Positions 5,998 through 12,908 of a stretch of 64,000 bases of DNA are shown piece by piece; positions within the stretch are counted from its first letter, which is position 1, and every line of letters begins with the position of its first letter. The translations under genes were made by a program, and so were the position numbers. The stretch is from a phage. The notes beneath the pieces were generated by a model. It did no database searches and had not been told where the DNA came from. It saw only the letters and a list, made by a program, of their open reading frames with translations. The stretch lies in sequence record OZ346167.1. One strand, written 5' to 3'.

Positions 5998-6381
5998 TCA
6001 AATACCTGTGCAGCTTCTGTTTTCTAAGAAATACTCAACACCATACATAGCTTTTTGCATCAAATCCTCTTTAAACTGGATACGATGATTTAGCATAGCC
6101 TGTACATCAATATTATCAGGGTGCTTCTCTTTAATGTTTGCAGATTGCAAGAAGTACTCTGCAAGAACACGATACTGATAGTCAGTTACTTTATCAGTCA
6201 TCTCTGTCAAAGACTCTTCAGAGATTGGTTTAAGTAGCTCACCATTAGCTAGAGCAACACCTTTTACAATCTGGCAAGTATCCTCTGGAACACCTGATAA
6301 GTCCACATTTGGAAGTTCTGTTGCATTGACTGGTAAATTCATTGCCATAACCATTGCAGCAGCTAATAAAATCTTTTTCAT
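5998..6381 (-). CDS. Secreted/periplasmic protein with signal peptide
   Basis: N-terminus MKKILLAAAMVMAMNLPVNA is signal-peptide-like. Confidence 0.6.
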   Translation of the reverse strand: MKKILLAAAMVMAMNLPVNATELPNVDLSGVPEDTCQIVKGVALANGELLKPISEESLTEMTDKVTDYQYRVLAEYFLQSANIKEKHPDNIDVQAMLNHRIQFKEDLMQKAMYGVEYFLENRSCTGI

Positions 6382-6479
6382 AATGACCTCAAAGTTATAT
6401 TAAATTTTGTATTACATTGAGTATAAAAATAAGCTATAACACCTGACTTGTCAACAGATTTTATAGCTTATTTGGCAGA

Positions 6480-6910
6480 TTTTTTATAAGGCTACTGCCA
6501 TCCTTCCATACATTACCTTACCTCACCTGACCTGACCCTACCTAACATTACCGTGCCACACCTCACTTAAAAACCCTCTTAAAAGACTCTTAAGTGATGT
6601 AATCGAATTTTAATGTAGCTCCGATTAACTACCCATACCTTGCATTACTTCACCAAACCGTACATTACTTCACCAAACCATACATTACCAGACCATGCCA
6701 CACCTGTCCAAACTCAACCTCATTAAAAGACCCTGTTTAAAGACCTTTTAAAAAGGTAAGTCTCATTTTAATGTAGCTGAGACTAACTACCCATACCATA
6801 CCTTACACCGCCGTACCACACCGAACATCACCAAACCATACCAAGCCAGAGCCTACTGTACCATACCGAACATCACTTAAAAACCCTTTTCAAAGACTCT
6901 TAAGTGATGC
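6480..6910. repeat. About three degenerate tandem copies of a ~155-bp unit (CA-rich tract + inverted-repeat hairpin CATCACTTAA..TTAAGTGATG + TTTTAATGTAGCT..ACTAACTACCCATACC box)
   Basis: hairpin copies near 6561 and 6871 (related copy near 6715); box copies near 6607 and 6765; no ORF. Confidence 0.6.
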
Positions 6911-7123
6911 TGGTGAGTACCCGTTGGTTTATGATGCTCAGTATACTCACCAAATTTTCTATGTCAACAACTTTTATAAAAAAGTTCTGATAGCTATATG
7001 CGTCACGAAACAAAAGATTGTAAACAAGACACCCATTGCAAAAGATGTGTCCAAAAGCTTACTTGCAACGTATGACAATACAAAGACAACCAGTATAAAC
7101 AAAATGACTGTACTGAACATAGT

Positions 7124-8260
7124 TTACTCATAATCCCTAATAACTAGCCCAACAGGGAACTGTAAAGAACCCTTACGAGTCATCTTCTGGAACTGAACCG
7201 TTAAAGGTTTCCCGATAAACTCTTCAGGATGTTCAGCAAGATACTGTTTCTTCTCGTGTGTAGTTTTCCATGAAACATCTACAAAGACGTTAGGAAGAGT
7301 CTCTACAACGAACTTACCATGACCACGTTTATCAGTCTTTACACCAGTCACTTTAAACTCTTCAGTGTGCATCTTCTTGTGCTTAATCAAGAAGTATGAA
7401 CGGTGACAACACTCATAGAAGGAGTCTTCAGAGATTGAGCGGTACATTGCACCTTCAAACTTAGTTTCAACCCACTTATCATGAGCTTCATCAAACTCTT
7501 CCCAAGAATTTACACGGATAGTCTGCACAGGAACAACTCTACAGGTATCCCCAAGCTCAACAATAGGTGAGTTATCAATAACTTCACGACGCTCAGGCCA
7601 AGATTTTGAATTGTCACAGATATCATACCAGTAGAATTTAAGAAGGTGACGGTCTGGATTGTCAGCATTCTTAATCATAGATACAATATCTTCTAAGTCC
7701 CAACCATGAGCATAAATCTCACCATCAAAGTCTTCAACTTGTGGATGTAATTTAAGCAACAAAAGCAAATCTGGGATTAGTTCTGTTGGAACGTTGTAAA
7801 CAGTATTCTCACGAGAATAAGCTGTGAAACTGACTGAATCAGCATCTCTTGAAATTCTACAACGGACACCATCAAGTTTTGGTTGAGCATCAGCAGGGAA
7901 CTTCAGATACTTTGCATGACTAACCTTTGCAGCATCATGAGCAAGCTGTACACCTACCTTCTCAGTATTCTGTGCAGATTCTTTTGTGTAAGCATAACCT
8001 TTACGGTCAACTTGCTTTTTATACTTAGCAGCAACTTCAAAGAGAGCTTGCTGTTCAGCGTTACGCTCATTCTTTTTACCGATGTTTTTAGGTTCTGCTG
8101 TATACTCTTCAAACATCATCTTGCCATTTTCTTTACCATAGGTTGTAATAACTTTGTCACCTACAGCAACGCATGACCAGACGTTGAAAGAGCCATCTTT
8201 ATTTTGTTTGTATAGGATTGTCATTTTATTCCTCTGAGTGATACCAAGTGTTGCAAGCAT
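7124..8260 (-). CDS. ATP-dependent DNA ligase
   Basis: 378-aa ORF with ligase adenylation motif I (KLDGVR). Confidence 0.85.
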   Translation of the reverse strand: MLATLGITQRNKMTILYKQNKDGSFNVWSCVAVGDKVITTYGKENGKMMFEEYTAEPKNIGKKNERNAEQQALFEVAAKYKKQVDRKGYAYTKESAQNTEKVGVQLAHDAAKVSHAKYLKFPADAQPKLDGVRCRISRDADSVSFTAYSRENTVYNVPTELIPDLLLLLKLHPQVEDFDGEIYAHGWDLEDIVSMIKNADNPDRHLLKFYWYDICDNSKSWPERREVIDNSPIVELGDTCRVVPVQTIRVNSWEEFDEAHDKWVETKFEGAMYRSISEDSFYECCHRSYFLIKHKKMHTEEFKVTGVKTDKRGHGKFVVETLPNVFVDVSWKTTHEKKQYLAEHPEEFIGKPLTVQFQKMTRKGSLQFPVGLVIRDYE

Positions 8261-9372: not shown

Positions 9373-9939
9373 TCAAGATAGTTTTGCAAACTCTCCGTGG
9401 AGTTTAATAGCAGCTTCACAGTAAGCTTTATGGGCTTCTTCAGGTGTGTCATGGTAACCTAAAAACATCTTCTTACCTTTATAACTTATCTGTGCGACCC
9501 ACTTACCAGACTTCTTCTTCAGGCTTACACCCTTATAGCCTGATTTATTGGTGGATAGTTTGCTTTTATTCCAAGCACTTTGGTAGTCATATGCTTCTCT
9601 TAAGTTTACAATCCTGTTATCAAGGGAGTCTCCATTAATATGGTCAATAACACCTTTCGGCAACCTACCATACATGTACAGCCATGCGAGTCTGTGTGCT
9701 TTATGTGCTTTCTTGTCAAAATAGATAGTAATCTGCTTATGACCAGTTGAGTCAATCTGGATGCTCCCCGCTACCTGTCCTGCGTACTGACTATTAAAAA
9801 CTTTAACAGCCTTTGAGTCGCCCTCTCTACGAAGCCAAGTAAAGACCCCTGTTTCGGGGTCATAGTGTAGTAGTTCCTTTAAACGTTCTTTTGTAATCAT
9901 TTTGTCACCATTAATGCACTTCCAACCACGATTTACCAA
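9373..9939 (-). CDS. HNH homing endonuclease with AP2-like DNA-binding domain
   Basis: LHYDPETGVFTW N-terminal motif, HINGD..N HNH core, GYKGVS..GKW AP2-like tail; paralog of 19771..20262. Confidence 0.8.
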   Translation of the reverse strand: MVNRGWKCINGDKMITKERLKELLHYDPETGVFTWLRREGDSKAVKVFNSQYAGQVAGSIQIDSTGHKQITIYFDKKAHKAHRLAWLYMYGRLPKGVIDHINGDSLDNRIVNLREAYDYQSAWNKSKLSTNKSGYKGVSLKKKSGKWVAQISYKGKKMFLGYHDTPEEAHKAYCEAAIKLHGEFAKLS

Positions 9940-10465
9940 CCTTTGCTGTACCAGTTACAAGTGTTTCTTTCCTCAAACCTAAGTTTTTTGAAGCTTGTCC
10001 ATACATCCAGTCAGCAATTGCTTTCATATCATGTGTCATACCCTCTGGACATTCCCAACTATTTTCATCGTGATATGCCAGAAGTAACCTTGCTCCGATA
10101 GCTGGTTTTCGAGCATTCAGTTTTGTCAGGCCATCTTCACAGGCTTTTCTTGCTGCTAGGTTGATGGCCTCATTCTGAATCTGTGCTTCCGAACTCATCA
10201 GGAGGTAGTTCAGTAGTTTATGTGGAGATTTGCACCATATCCATGCTCCAGCGACCCTGATATAACCACCTTTAGCAATTGAAGAATTCTTCCCAAAAAC
10301 CTCTTCCAGAGCCTTTTTAGACGCCTTAAAATCGGCTTCTAAGCTATCAAGTAACTTCTTAATCTTTGGCAGACGCATATAGTAAGTTTGTTTAGTTAAT
10401 GCACCTTCCTCTGTAGAAGCTGCCTTAATGGTTTTGGCAAACTTCTCATCACCTGCACCGAACAA
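9911..10465 (-). CDS. DNA polymerase (family A), 3' exon: end of motif B and motif C
   Basis: begins (L)FGAGDEK (motif B end; T7 pol has YGAGDEK) and contains LLAYHDE (motif C). Confidence 0.8.
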   Translation of the reverse strand: MFGAGDEKFAKTIKAASTEEGALTKQTYYMRLPKIKKLLDSLEADFKASKKALEEVFGKNSSIAKGGYIRVAGAWIWCKSPHKLLNYLLMSSEAQIQNEAINLAARKACEDGLTKLNARKPAIGARLLLAYHDENSWECPEGMTHDMKAIADWMYGQASKNLGLRKETLVTGTAKVGKSWLEVH

Positions 10466-10736
10466 TACATCTGGTCAATACACTCGCAAGGTGTACCAGT
10501 TCTCTTATGAACTTCTCCGCATTTCTACGGAGTGTCGGACTATATCACGTAGTAGTAATACTACCGTTGCACTTGGGAATGGTCATTGGCTTACCACCCT
10601 ACTCTACTCAGTTCATACGTTAAGTATGCTTTTCGATAGTCTCTGAACGTTCCTCTTAAGAGGCTTCGCTGCTGATTACCATATCTTTACAGACTTAGGC
10701 TTCCAGCAATTCACAACGTTTTACATGCGCCACTGA
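10466..10736 (-). mobile_element. Group I intron (ORF-less, about 270 nt) splitting the DNA polymerase gene inside motif B; boundaries approximate
   Basis: stops in all frames; transcribed strand carries Q/R/S-like core elements AATCAGCAGC, GTTCAGAGACTA, GATATAGTCC. Confidence 0.7.
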
Positions 10737-12908
10737 CGCATAAATGCCATTTTTGGCTTTCTTACGACCTTTTGTAATCTCGTGGAGAAGTTCCTCATCC
10801 TGTGTCTCCCTACAACGAACAATATCTTCTTCCTTGTTCAGACCAAAGTAAATACTGTTCAGTGTATGCGCATCAGTCCCTGTGTAGACTTCATAGAGGT
10901 CGTTCTCAGCATCATAACGAAGATACTTGTCAGTTTCTGGATTAAGGTGCTTATCAAGATGTTTGCAATAATATCTCCCATCTTCTTGCTTGGTAAATTC
11001 TACTGACTCTTTACCTTCAGTTACTGCTTTAGTGAACTCTTTATCACCCATAAAGTTACACAGTAAAACAAGCTGTGCAGAGTTCTGGTCAACAGAAACA
11101 ATGTTAGTCCCCTCTTCACAAATCCACACTGCCCTCATAGGTGCTCCATAGACAGCAGCACCAGACGGTACGTTTACAATACCATATTGTGTCATACGTC
11201 CAGTTGAAGTACCAAACACCATTGCACCAGCACTAAGGCGACCATCAGGACGAATCTGGTTCAACCAACCTTTTTCATCATCCTTTGAGTTCTCAATAGT
11301 TCTGCGTCGGTGCATCAAAGTATAGTACTTAGCAATCTTCTGTCCAAGCTCACCTTCAATCGTATCATAAGATGATTCAGTAAGTTTTGGTGAAGTACGG
11401 ATTAAGCAAGGCTCAAGCAAGTCTGTGTATTTCTTCACAGACCAGTTATGCTCAATGTACTGTACACCTTCATGTTCAACATAACTCAAACCACACCGCT
11501 CAACCATTTCCTGCCACTTAGGATGCTTTGTAATCATCTTTTTATTGTCTTTGAAACGACAAACTTTGACAGGGCGACCATCTGAGTCTTTCTTGTAATT
11601 CCAGTCATCTGGAATCCAACCAACTGATTTCAAGTAGTCTTTAACAACTGCTACCTGAGTCATACGAGAAACTTCAAACTCAATTGGTGTATATGGTGCA
11701 TCAATCAAACCTGTGTAGCGACTTGACTCAAGTTCAAAGTGATTAACAACGTGGCTGTTATAGTACTTCACAGTTTTGACTGTTTTTACTGGCTTCCAGT
11801 CTTTGCATTTCTTACCAATCTTTGCGTTCAACTCATTGCAAATTGCACGAGCATCCTTCATTGCTACAAATCCCTCTTTGTACTCTTCACCAGTTACAGA
11901 GTTGGTTGGTGTATAGCAATTTCTCTTTTCAATGTTAAAAATCTTTGTAGTTGGCTTACCAAATGGCTTGATTTCATATGTCTGCATCTCACCGTTACGT
12001 ACCTGCTGACGATACTTTGTCTTAGGGTACTTGGTAATCCTCTTCAGCCCATCTGCATGACCGAATGCTTCAACATATTCATTCCAAGCTTTTGCAAACT
12101 CTTCTCCAGTAACTTTACCTTTGGTCTTAATAGTTGGAGGAAGATGTGGTTCAACCTCTGAAGCAAGCTCATTAGTCAACTTGTCAAGTTCCTTTACATG
12201 GAACTCCATAAGCTCTTTATCAGCTTTCCAACCATTGATAGCTTGCTGGCTCATCCAGAAAGATGTTTCTTTAGCTCGCATGTAGGTTTCATAAGTGTCT
12301 ATGCCACACTTCTTAAGCTTGAGATACTCGTTATCAAGTGCCCGTTTAGTTTTGGCGTTAATACGGATATCTTCTACGACACGAGTGAAGATTTCTGCAT
12401 TCCACACACCCCAATGCTCAATCTCTGGCTTACGAACACCAACACGAGCACCCCATGCAGCCAAACCATGAGCACCTTTATAACCCTTTGGAGTTGGCCT
12501 ATCCATCCACTGAACACGAGACTGGATAAGAGAATCCTGAAAGAAATTACCCCACGGCTTACATTTTGGATTATCAAAGTTCCATAAATCAGGTGCAATG
12601 TGATTGAAAACCCACCAGTCATAACCGAGACCATTATGGATGCAAAGACGTTTTGCCTTTAACGCAAATTCAACACCTTCACGTAAACCACCTTTGATGT
12701 ACTTAGTGTACTTGTGACCGAGGATAGGCTCATCTGTAAAGACCCATACAGGTGGCTCTTCATCGTCAGATTTATAGTCTGCAAAGGCCATTACGTGAAC
12801 TTTAGTGAACTCAAGGAGTAAACCATCAGTTTCTGTATCACCAACCAAATGTAAGTTTTTAAAATCTACGTTTTCCATTTTTACTCCCTCTAAAATCATT
12901 AACCTCAT
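10695..12908 (-). CDS. DNA polymerase (family A) with 3'-5' exonuclease domain, 5' exon (ORF runs into the intron; true exon probably ends near 10737)
   Basis: exonuclease motif VGDTETDG near N-terminus; ends ...RKKAKNGIYA at start of motif B. Confidence 0.85.
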   Translation of the reverse strand: MRLMILEGVKMENVDFKNLHLVGDTETDGLLLEFTKVHVMAFADYKSDDEEPPVWVFTDEPILGHKYTKYIKGGLREGVEFALKAKRLCIHNGLGYDWWVFNHIAPDLWNFDNPKCKPWGNFFQDSLIQSRVQWMDRPTPKGYKGAHGLAAWGARVGVRKPEIEHWGVWNAEIFTRVVEDIRINAKTKRALDNEYLKLKKCGIDTYETYMRAKETSFWMSQQAINGWKADKELMEFHVKELDKLTNELASEVEPHLPPTIKTKGKVTGEEFAKAWNEYVEAFGHADGLKRITKYPKTKYRQQVRNGEMQTYEIKPFGKPTTKIFNIEKRNCYTPTNSVTGEEYKEGFVAMKDARAICNELNAKIGKKCKDWKPVKTVKTVKYYNSHVVNHFELESSRYTGLIDAPYTPIEFEVSRMTQVAVVKDYLKSVGWIPDDWNYKKDSDGRPVKVCRFKDNKKMITKHPKWQEMVERCGLSYVEHEGVQYIEHNWSVKKYTDLLEPCLIRTSPKLTESSYDTIEGELGQKIAKYYTLMHRRRTIENSKDDEKGWLNQIRPDGRLSAGAMVFGTSTGRMTQYGIVNVPSGAAVYGAPMRAVWICEEGTNIVSVDQNSAQLVLLCNFMGDKEFTKAVTEGKESVEFTKQEDGRYYCKHLDKHLNPETDKYLRYDAENDLYEVYTGTDAHTLNSIYFGLNKEEDIVRCRETQDEELLHEITKGRKKAKNGIYASVAHVKRCELLEA

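Follow-up and report, generated by a model that had tools for sequence, protein, structure and literature searches.

A repeat region of a Felix O1-like phage very probably encodes three type II VIPR vrRNAs, while the 64-kb window shows no homologue of vipr or vap

What is encoded by the three degenerate repeats of about 155 bp that separate the DNA ligase gene from a 127-aa gene in this phage? They occupy positions 6474-6909 of the window, by which we mean the whole stretch of 64,000 nucleotides analyzed here (record OZ346167.1). A preliminary description had assigned to each unit a CA-rich tract, an inverted-repeat hairpin, and a box, and had offered three possible functions for the region: an origin, a regulatory protein-binding array, or a transcribed structured RNA. 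The source of the window is a Felix O1-like myovirus; the region 5900-7400 matches 259 phage records at 90-95% identity, chiefly Felixounavirus of Escherichia, Salmonella, and Shigella. Over 57 kb, the window shows 94.6% identity to a close relative, JK55, which shares the three-unit layout and carries an identical middle tract. All the genes flanking the array lie on the minus strand, and replication genes (ligase, polymerase) surround it.

Several other features of the neighborhood were recorded. The 42-aa hydrophobic ORF located directly after the ligase gene is kept in three relatives (L001-L003), and most records leave it unannotated. The DNA polymerase gene is split by a group I intron (Rfam RF00028, 64 bits; window 10465-10798, minus strand), of which 10465-10737 represents an insertion relative to JK55. 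The polymerase exon just downstream of the intron (9835-10464) shows 79% identity to JK55 vs ~94% elsewhere, and nothing in JK55 matches the homing-endonuclease region at 9452-9834. ARAGORN predicted a cluster of 25 tRNA genes at 57425-63554 on the plus strand; 22 tRNA genes are reported for Felix O1.

The ~155-bp periodicity is genuine. Three copies of a 94-nt segment, 62-71% identical, lie at 6506, 6663, and 6816, i.e. 157 and 153 nt apart. Self-comparison, the check named in the preliminary description, bears this out: lags 158 and 153 stand out in the autocorrelation of 6480-6915, and so do lags 5, 10, 15, 20, and 25. The peaks reach 0.41-0.45, vs a maximum that averaged 0.35 over 200 shuffles. 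The ~155-bp period escaped TRF, which gave only sub-periods of 5 nt and 20 nt. The region is ORF-free, as had been stated: neither strand has an ORF of at least 30 aa between 6382 and 6899. The inverted repeat CACTTAA-N-TTAAGTG is found twice in the window vs 0.01 expected by chance, so the hairpin also stands. It had been attributed to every unit, however, and this stem is present in only two of them, the middle unit having another stem around the same loop. The box TTTTAATGTAGCT does occur, exactly twice, and forms one half of a pseudoknot.

The CA-rich tract is likewise real; on the minus strand, its complement follows a strict 5-nt period, YNNGG. The minus strand is the informative one; the preliminary description had used the wrong (plus) one and overlooked the period, which is the defining feature of the region. 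In-phase GG dinucleotides with period 5 number 8-9 per 55 nt in the array, compared to at most 4 anywhere else in the 64 kb. In minus-strand orientation, each unit comprises a hairpin (termed hairpin A), a guide tract of tandem pentamers, and a 3' tail with the form of a 32-nt H-type pseudoknot (Table 1). The successive NN dinucleotides are TC AT AC AG CT TT AT TT GA TC GT AC GG AA AT AT for vrRNA-a and GT AC AA TA AG CA CA GA AA AA AT for vrRNA-c, while the tract of vrRNA-b contains a 20-nt internal duplication and one purine at the Y position. From the lengths of arrays and tails, RNAs of 87-117 nt would be expected. RNA folds of the whole region were uninformative because the repeat copies pair with one another.

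Table 1 Coordinates of the array and neighboring genes in the window.
Feature	Position	Strand	Basis or remark
DNA ligase gene	8260..7124	minus	
42-aa hydrophobic ORF	7131..7003	minus	directly after ligase gene
Promoter P1, TTGACA-16-TATACT	6967..6940	minus	consensus scan, 11/12 matches; near-consensus sigma-70
Predicted transcription start	near 6933	minus	from P1
Hairpin A1 before vrRNA-a, CAUCACUUAA ... UUAAGUGAUG, loop core GUCUUUGAAAAGGGU	6909..6871	minus	in all 26 relatives and SUSP1
vrRNA-a guide tract, 16 YNNGG pentamers	6870..6791	minus	
vrRNA-a 3' tail, H-type pseudoknot type E1: GUAGUU/AGUCUC/AGCUAC/AUUAAAAU/GAGACU	6790..6759	minus	identical to SUSP1 vrRNA tails; covariation
Hairpin A2 before vrRNA-b, ACCUUUUUAAAAG ... 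CUUUUAAUGAGG, loop core GUCUUUAAACAGGGU	6757..6718	minus	inverted repeat
vrRNA-b guide tract, 17 pentamers (10 strict YNNGG)	6717..6633	minus	same array in JK55
vrRNA-b 3' tail, pseudoknot type E1': GUAGUU/AAUCGG/AGCUAC/AUUAAAAU/UCGAUU	6632..6601	minus	stem 2 compensated
Hairpin A1 before vrRNA-c	6599..6561	minus	inverted repeat
vrRNA-c guide tract, 11 pentamers	6560..6506	minus	
vrRNA-c 3' tail, pseudoknot type E2: AAGGAU/GGCAGU/AGCCUU/AUAAAAAAU/CUGCC	6505..6474	minus	terminal tail in all 26 loci and SUSP1
AT-rich hairpin then T-run	6473..6420	minus	inverted repeat; overlaps P2 of 127-aa gene
Promoter P2 of 127-aa gene, TTGACA-17-TATTTT	overlaps 6473..6420	minus	consensus scan
127-aa gene	6381..5998	minus	downstream of array

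The region was compared across 26 loci, i.e. three GenBank phages, 22 usable loci of the 23 retrieved from IMG/VR by searching with the 127-aa protein, and the window. These loci possess one to five units, and in 15 of them a 1.3-kb two-gene cassette is located between units. Conservation in related phages, which the preliminary description had proposed to examine, is found for the promoters, hairpins, and tails, which are nearly invariant across the 26 loci. The pentamer tracts, on the other hand, are unalignable between phages whose flanks are ~95-100% identical. Among 58 distinct tracts, 56 are exact multiples of 5 nt, with a range of 45-95 nt and a mode of 55 nt. The 707 pentamers of the 26 loci have T (89%) or C (11%) at position 1, are free at positions 2 and 3 (the hypervariable NN), and show G at position 4 in 79% of cases, never C, and G at position 5 in 98%.

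The tails comprise four sequence types and a satellite variant, all of which fit a single H-type pseudoknot: stem 1, stem 2, and stem 1', of 6 nt each, are followed by an A-rich loop of 8-9 nt and by stem 2' of 5-6 nt. Across 17 distinct tails, the paired cells amount to 91.7%, vs 31-40% with slid partners, and both sides have changed in 10 of the 12 pairs. Stem 2 of type E1' is fully compensated relative to type E1, and a G.U pair of E1' becomes G-C or A-U in variants; such G.U pairs work on minus-strand RNA only. Together with the upstream promoter, the covarying pseudoknot and the orientation of the G.U pairs argue for the transcribed structured RNA among the functions offered earlier. Rfam showed no match in the region, neither at the gathering score nor up to E = 10, and a 14-nt AT-rich pattern scanned in IMG/VR gave chance-level matches only.

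The same architecture has been described for the guide RNAs of VIPR, a phage RNA-guided DNA-silencing system consisting of Vipr, an accessory Vap, and vrRNAs (bioRxiv 10.64898/2026.04.26.720920). Work on VIPR so far consists of preprints, both of 2026 (10.64898/2026.04.26.720920; 10.64898/2026.04.26.720927). According to the available text of the first, Vipr is a small RAMP-like, phage-encoded protein of ~20 kDa, the Vap of type II is a predicted DNA-binding protein, and a vrRNA is composed of 9-16 YNNGG repeats (GGY conserved, NN hypervariable) followed by an invariable pseudoknot tail (10.64898/2026.04.26.720920). The same text reports that, during infection with Escherichia phage SUSP1, vrRNAs of ~100 nt were detected by sRNA-seq, the downstream vrRNA among them, and co-purified with Vipr; that the NN dinucleotides pair with double-stranded DNA, one base being skipped per repeat, leading to repressed transcription; and that the SUSP1 guides aim at an E. 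coli satellite (10.64898/2026.04.26.720920). DNA recognition by VIPR is PAM-free and non-contiguous, and the system has been proposed to predate CRISPR. In the available text of the second preprint, cryo-EM of the SUSP1 complex places one Vipr protomer on each GGY repeat, the pseudoknot is resolved and caps the 3' end, and both protomers and R-loop appear in the 3'-to-5' direction (10.64898/2026.04.26.720927).

The three tracts of the window contain 16, 17, and 11 pentamers, one exceeding the 9-16 range by one, and SUSP1 has exactly the same E1 and E2 tails. The SUSP1 locus is found at the same site after the ligase gene and has the same P1, the same A1 and A2 hairpins, and tails E1, E2, and E3, with one vrRNA upstream and three downstream of two genes, in agreement with the preprint. 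Since place, promoter, hairpins, and tails are those of SUSP1, we consider the units of the window to be orthologues of characterized vrRNA genes. Judged from these sequence comparisons, the region very probably represents three vrRNA genes of a type II (SUSP1-clade) VIPR system, read on the minus strand from P1, in a phage that appears to lack vipr and vap. The protein-binding array proposed earlier would then hold in an RNA sense, as in SUSP1 where a Vipr protomer sits on each GGY repeat, but not as an array of DNA operators. By analogy with SUSP1, a Vipr protomer on each GGY would display the two NN bases, these would pair with double-stranded DNA, every third target base being skipped, and the resulting filament would repress transcription of the target. 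For the guides to act in the window phage, Vipr would have to come in trans; failing this, they would be recent, still undecayed remnants.

P1 and its SUSP1 counterpart have identical hexamers and spacer, with one difference just downstream of the -10 hexamer. Both this promoter and the SUSP1 precedent suggest that P1 drives the vrRNA array, and the AT-rich hairpin followed by a T-run is likely the end of the array transcript, where it would act as a terminator. An inverted repeat, GGTGAGTA / TACTCACC (6912-6919 and 6944-6951), brackets the -10 of P1 and the start site and is conserved in all 26 loci and SUSP1; it may be a putative operator, e.g. for Vap or for a nearby 'transcriptional regulator'. 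Hairpin A possesses two stem types around a conserved loop core and is a boundary element with a putative role in processing or as a promoter, either as a signal for 5' processing or as a promoter inside the array. It is not mentioned in the searched text of the two VIPR preprints. In VIPR+ phages, a stem-less copy of its loop core (AAGAGTCTTCTGTTGAGGGTTCTT) precedes the vipr start codon by ~50 nt (about 4790-4830 in L002; about 2425-2460 in the SUSP1 locus L147), suggesting that the core is a promoter or protein-binding site beyond its place in a hairpin loop.

Satellites were located with the SUSP1 gene agp017, which is common to SUSP1 and its satellite according to the preprint, and islands were found in 474 of 5,426 complete E. 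coli genomes. We scanned 60 guide tracts against nine fetched islands (104 kb) and 88 kb of flanking chromosome with skips of 0-3 nt, at a threshold of at least 80% NN match. With a skip of 1 nt, 36 of the 60 guides reached this threshold in the islands and none did in the flanks. No guide reached it with a skip of 0 nt in either set, and skips of 2 nt and 3 nt yielded a single guide each in the islands and none in the flanks. Matching of the NN dinucleotides to mobile-element DNA with one skipped base, as described for VIPR, is thus found here as well, and the 1-nt-skip rule is reproduced on sequences outside the set stated in the preprint (36/60 vs 0-1 at other skips).

All three guides of the window have a match in the satellites. 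For vrRNA-a, 29 of 32 NN positions match a satellite gene encoding a 107-aa protein (L153 6851-6897), the skipped base being the codon wobble position. For vrRNA-b, 26 of 34 NN positions match an HTH / replication-initiator-like satellite gene (L150 4859-4908), including 21 of the 22 positions nearest the pseudoknot (3' end), and the 20-nt duplication of this tract mirrors a repeated peptide motif of the target. For vrRNA-c, 19 of 22 NN positions match L157 6926-6957, i.e. the target gene and site of vrRNA-a on the opposite strand, and the skipped base is codon position 2, unlike the wobble position skipped by vrRNA-a. Guides a and c converge from opposite strands on a ~47-bp site in the gene of the 107-109-aa protein (L157 6921-6967; L151 6810-6856). 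When the guides were compared with the window and JK55, two matches of 16/20 were obtained, which is the chance level and gives no sign of self- or phage-on-phage targeting. The exact NNx pattern of vrRNA-c was absent from IMG/VR under mismatch-free matching, BLAST of the vrRNA region against the 5,426 E. coli genomes gave no match, and neither Pfam nor PHROGs assigned a function to Vipr, Vap, or the 107-aa target protein.

The satellite islands are ~11 kb long (L149 5500-17300; also L150-L153 and L156-L159) and encode a tape-measure protein and a large serine recombinase. Their baseplate protein gene shows 74-85% DNA identity to the SUSP1 gene, and they are inserted at yciI/tonB, in the yecN/yecD region, at lafU/dinB, and at ymdF/wrbA. 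The satellite of E. coli GN4751 bears its own vrRNA (L152 3044-3132, minus strand of the locus), with 12 pentamers, an E3-like pseudoknot, and an intrinsic terminator. Among the first five satellites examined, this was the case for one, and none encoded Vipr. Satellite-borne vrRNAs without vipr are also stated in the available text of the preprint (10.64898/2026.04.26.720920).

The two-gene cassette of the relatives encodes a 195-aa protein with 97.9% identity to the SUSP1 protein. It possesses the RNA-contact residues H17, E71, M72, R138, C173, D177, W178, and R179 named in the available text of the structural preprint (10.64898/2026.04.26.720927). Using tblastn, we detected no homologue of Vipr (195 aa) or Vap (146 aa) in the 64-kb window of the ~86-kb genome (best E = 0.25) or in the complete JK55 genome, so that neither contains the adjacent vipr and the accessory vap of a complete VIPR locus. 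Judging from JK55, the remaining sequence would be the structural-gene block, with a small residual chance of a vipr gene there. VIPR+ relatives have one copy of A2 ahead of the second guide tract, on the upstream side of vipr, and another behind the vap terminator; the window layout is A1-tract-E1, A2-tract-E1', A1-tract-E2. A single recombination event between the two A2 copies of a VIPR+ layout (e.g. L126 or L138) would delete vipr-vap and leave the layout of the window. From this comparison of layouts, such a deletion appears to be the simplest origin of the orphan array, and the VIPR− layouts with one and two units could be derived likewise by recombination. Distant Vipr homologues (22-44% identity) are present in phages of Gordonia, Mycobacterium, Pseudomonas, Vibrio, and Listonella, and a vipr with 99.5% identity is part of the Felix O1-like DNA found in GenBank record GU169904 ('Staphylococcus phage SA1').

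Orphan arrays are not restricted to the window. Among 231 phage records holding the vrRNA region, 118 hold Vipr at 90% identity or more, leaving at least 113 records, about half of the array-bearing Felix O1-like records, with an orphan array. Such arrays could have been kept because their vrRNAs load onto the Vipr of a co-infecting VIPR+ Felix O1-like phage, in shared anti-satellite defense or free-riding, or because they act as decoys that sequester the Vipr of a rival. Their frequency favors this idea, and so does their state: strict YNNGG pentamers make up 76.9% of orphan tracts vs 78.1% in VIPR+ loci, and 7 of 18 orphan guides still match satellites vs 23 of 42 VIPR+ guides. Trees of either flank show VIPR− loci interspersed with VIPR+ ones, suggesting that the two kinds of phages co-circulate and recombine, and the satellite vrRNAs without vipr provide a precedent within the system for the use of Vipr in trans. 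Nevertheless, recurrent deletions that are too recent for decay fit the same data, and several orphan arrays are the same as arrays of VIPR+ phages. For well-formed, target-matching orphans, recent recurrent loss and retention for Vipr in trans probably fit equally well; maintenance for trans-use or as decoys is, in our estimation, an unlikely account of the locus overall.

The remaining readings dispense with guide RNAs. A replication origin, in which G-rich transcripts form an R-loop or G-quadruplex or which contains iterons or primase sites, would agree with the location among replication genes (ligase, polymerase) and with a strong promoter followed by ~430 nt of extreme G-over-C skew in the RNA-like strand (134 C vs 42 G on the plus strand). 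Repeats of 10-22 bp with an AT-rich element, as in iteron origins, were not found, however; the sole conserved period is 5 nt and strand-specific, and the tract is hypervariable. The tract differs in sequence, length (45-95 nt), and copy number (1 to 5) between near-identical phages, the 1.3-kb gene cassette interrupts the region in relatives, and an R-loop or G-quadruplex leaves the pyrimidine after GG, the covarying pseudoknot, and the NNx matches to satellites unexplained. The GGY/NN guide code covers this content, and we regard the origin put forward in the preliminary description as extremely improbable. PeSLs, reportedly described by Arbiol et al. in 2010, are said to combine a promoter with stem-loop repeats and to reshuffle the genes of T4-type phages. 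A mobile regulatory cassette of this type, devoid of RNA function of its own, would account for the repeated hairpins around an optional two-gene cassette, for the derivation of every VIPR− layout by recombination between hairpin copies, and for the position of P2 inside a stem-loop. It covers only this evolutionary side-effect of the hairpins, not the YNNGG tract, the covariation of the pseudoknot, or the target matches, and processed vrRNAs bound by Vipr are already reported for SUSP1 in the available preprint text (10.64898/2026.04.26.720920), so we judge it very improbable. The region could also serve a ring-shaped RNA-binding protein of host or phage, TRAP-like or CsrA, as its sponge or as a regulatory leader. 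The TRAP sites of the Bacillus trp leader consist of ~11 conserved triplets with two free bases between them, each bound by one subunit of the oligomer. The ~11 triplets separated by two free bases in the array resemble such sites, and the final repeats overlap the pseudoknot stems. We know of no TRAP-like protein in enterobacteria, though, and GGA, the core of CsrA sites, is nearly absent: the frequency of a purine after GG rounds to 0.00 (n=707), with a single GGA in array b. Moreover, the available preprint texts already identify the GGY-binding protein as Vipr (10.64898/2026.04.26.720920; 10.64898/2026.04.26.720927), and there is scarcely any probability left for a sponge.

Several further candidates were dropped. 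A Rho utilization site on the plus strand was abandoned after the promoter scan found no plus-strand promoter, a sponge for CsrA, Hfq, or an anti-Shine-Dalgarno sequence after GGA proved nearly absent, and short leader peptides after the hairpins after these showed no conservation. A primase-site array, a tRNA CCA-end sponge, a RecA- or Chi-like recombination hotspot, and ToxI-like antitoxin repeats were set aside upon the identification of VIPR.

With the vrRNA reading preferred, what was known is the vrRNA system itself, described in 2026, and what is new is an array in a phage of the Felix O1 group that apparently lacks vipr and vap. Neither Felix O1 nor orphan phage arrays are mentioned in the text of the preprint 10.64898/2026.04.26.720920. 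vrRNA arrays appear to be widespread in this classical phage group, and about half of the array-bearing Felix O1-like phages would have well-formed, satellite-matching guides and have lost the protein. Orphan loci are invisible to the discovery pipeline because, according to the available preprint text, that pipeline began from the Vipr protein. These arrays offer a natural experiment on the loss, the trans-use, or the decoy role of guide RNAs, together with natural guide-target pairs. If orphan arrays are indeed maintained, they would constitute a guide-only 'cheater' or decoy layer in the phage-satellite-phage conflict.

Compared with known systems, the array resembles TRAP sites by analogy only, as the triplet is GAG/UAG there vs GGY here, the protein belongs to another family, and the variable bases are informative here. 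CRISPR arrays are alike in that structured handles alternate with variable guides, rival mobile elements are matched, and arrays without effectors (orphan arrays and phage mini-arrays) exist. They differ in that the guide of the window is non-contiguous, two of five RNA bases reading two of three DNA bases, and in that the window has neither spacer-repeat units nor cas genes and VIPR has no known acquisition machinery. Identical direct repeats of 28-37 nt with unique spacers were not found in the region, which contains no such repeat family and no Rfam CRISPR-DR match. The satellite vrRNA, like the array of the window, has no vipr in the same element and would depend on Vipr from another genome; unlike the array, it is single, carries its own intrinsic terminator and an E3-like tail with stem 2 GUCG/CGAC, and does not reside in a lytic helper phage. 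Relative to the vrRNA arrays of SUSP1, the window phage is apparently devoid of vipr and vap, belongs to Felixounavirus rather than Suspvirus, and has two tracts whose 16 and 17 repeats reach or slightly exceed the stated 9-16. The two share the locus between the DNA ligase and the 127-aa gene, P1, the hairpins and the E1 and E2 tails (at most 1-2 base differences), the YNNGG tract, and targets in E. coli satellites under the 1-nt-skip rule.
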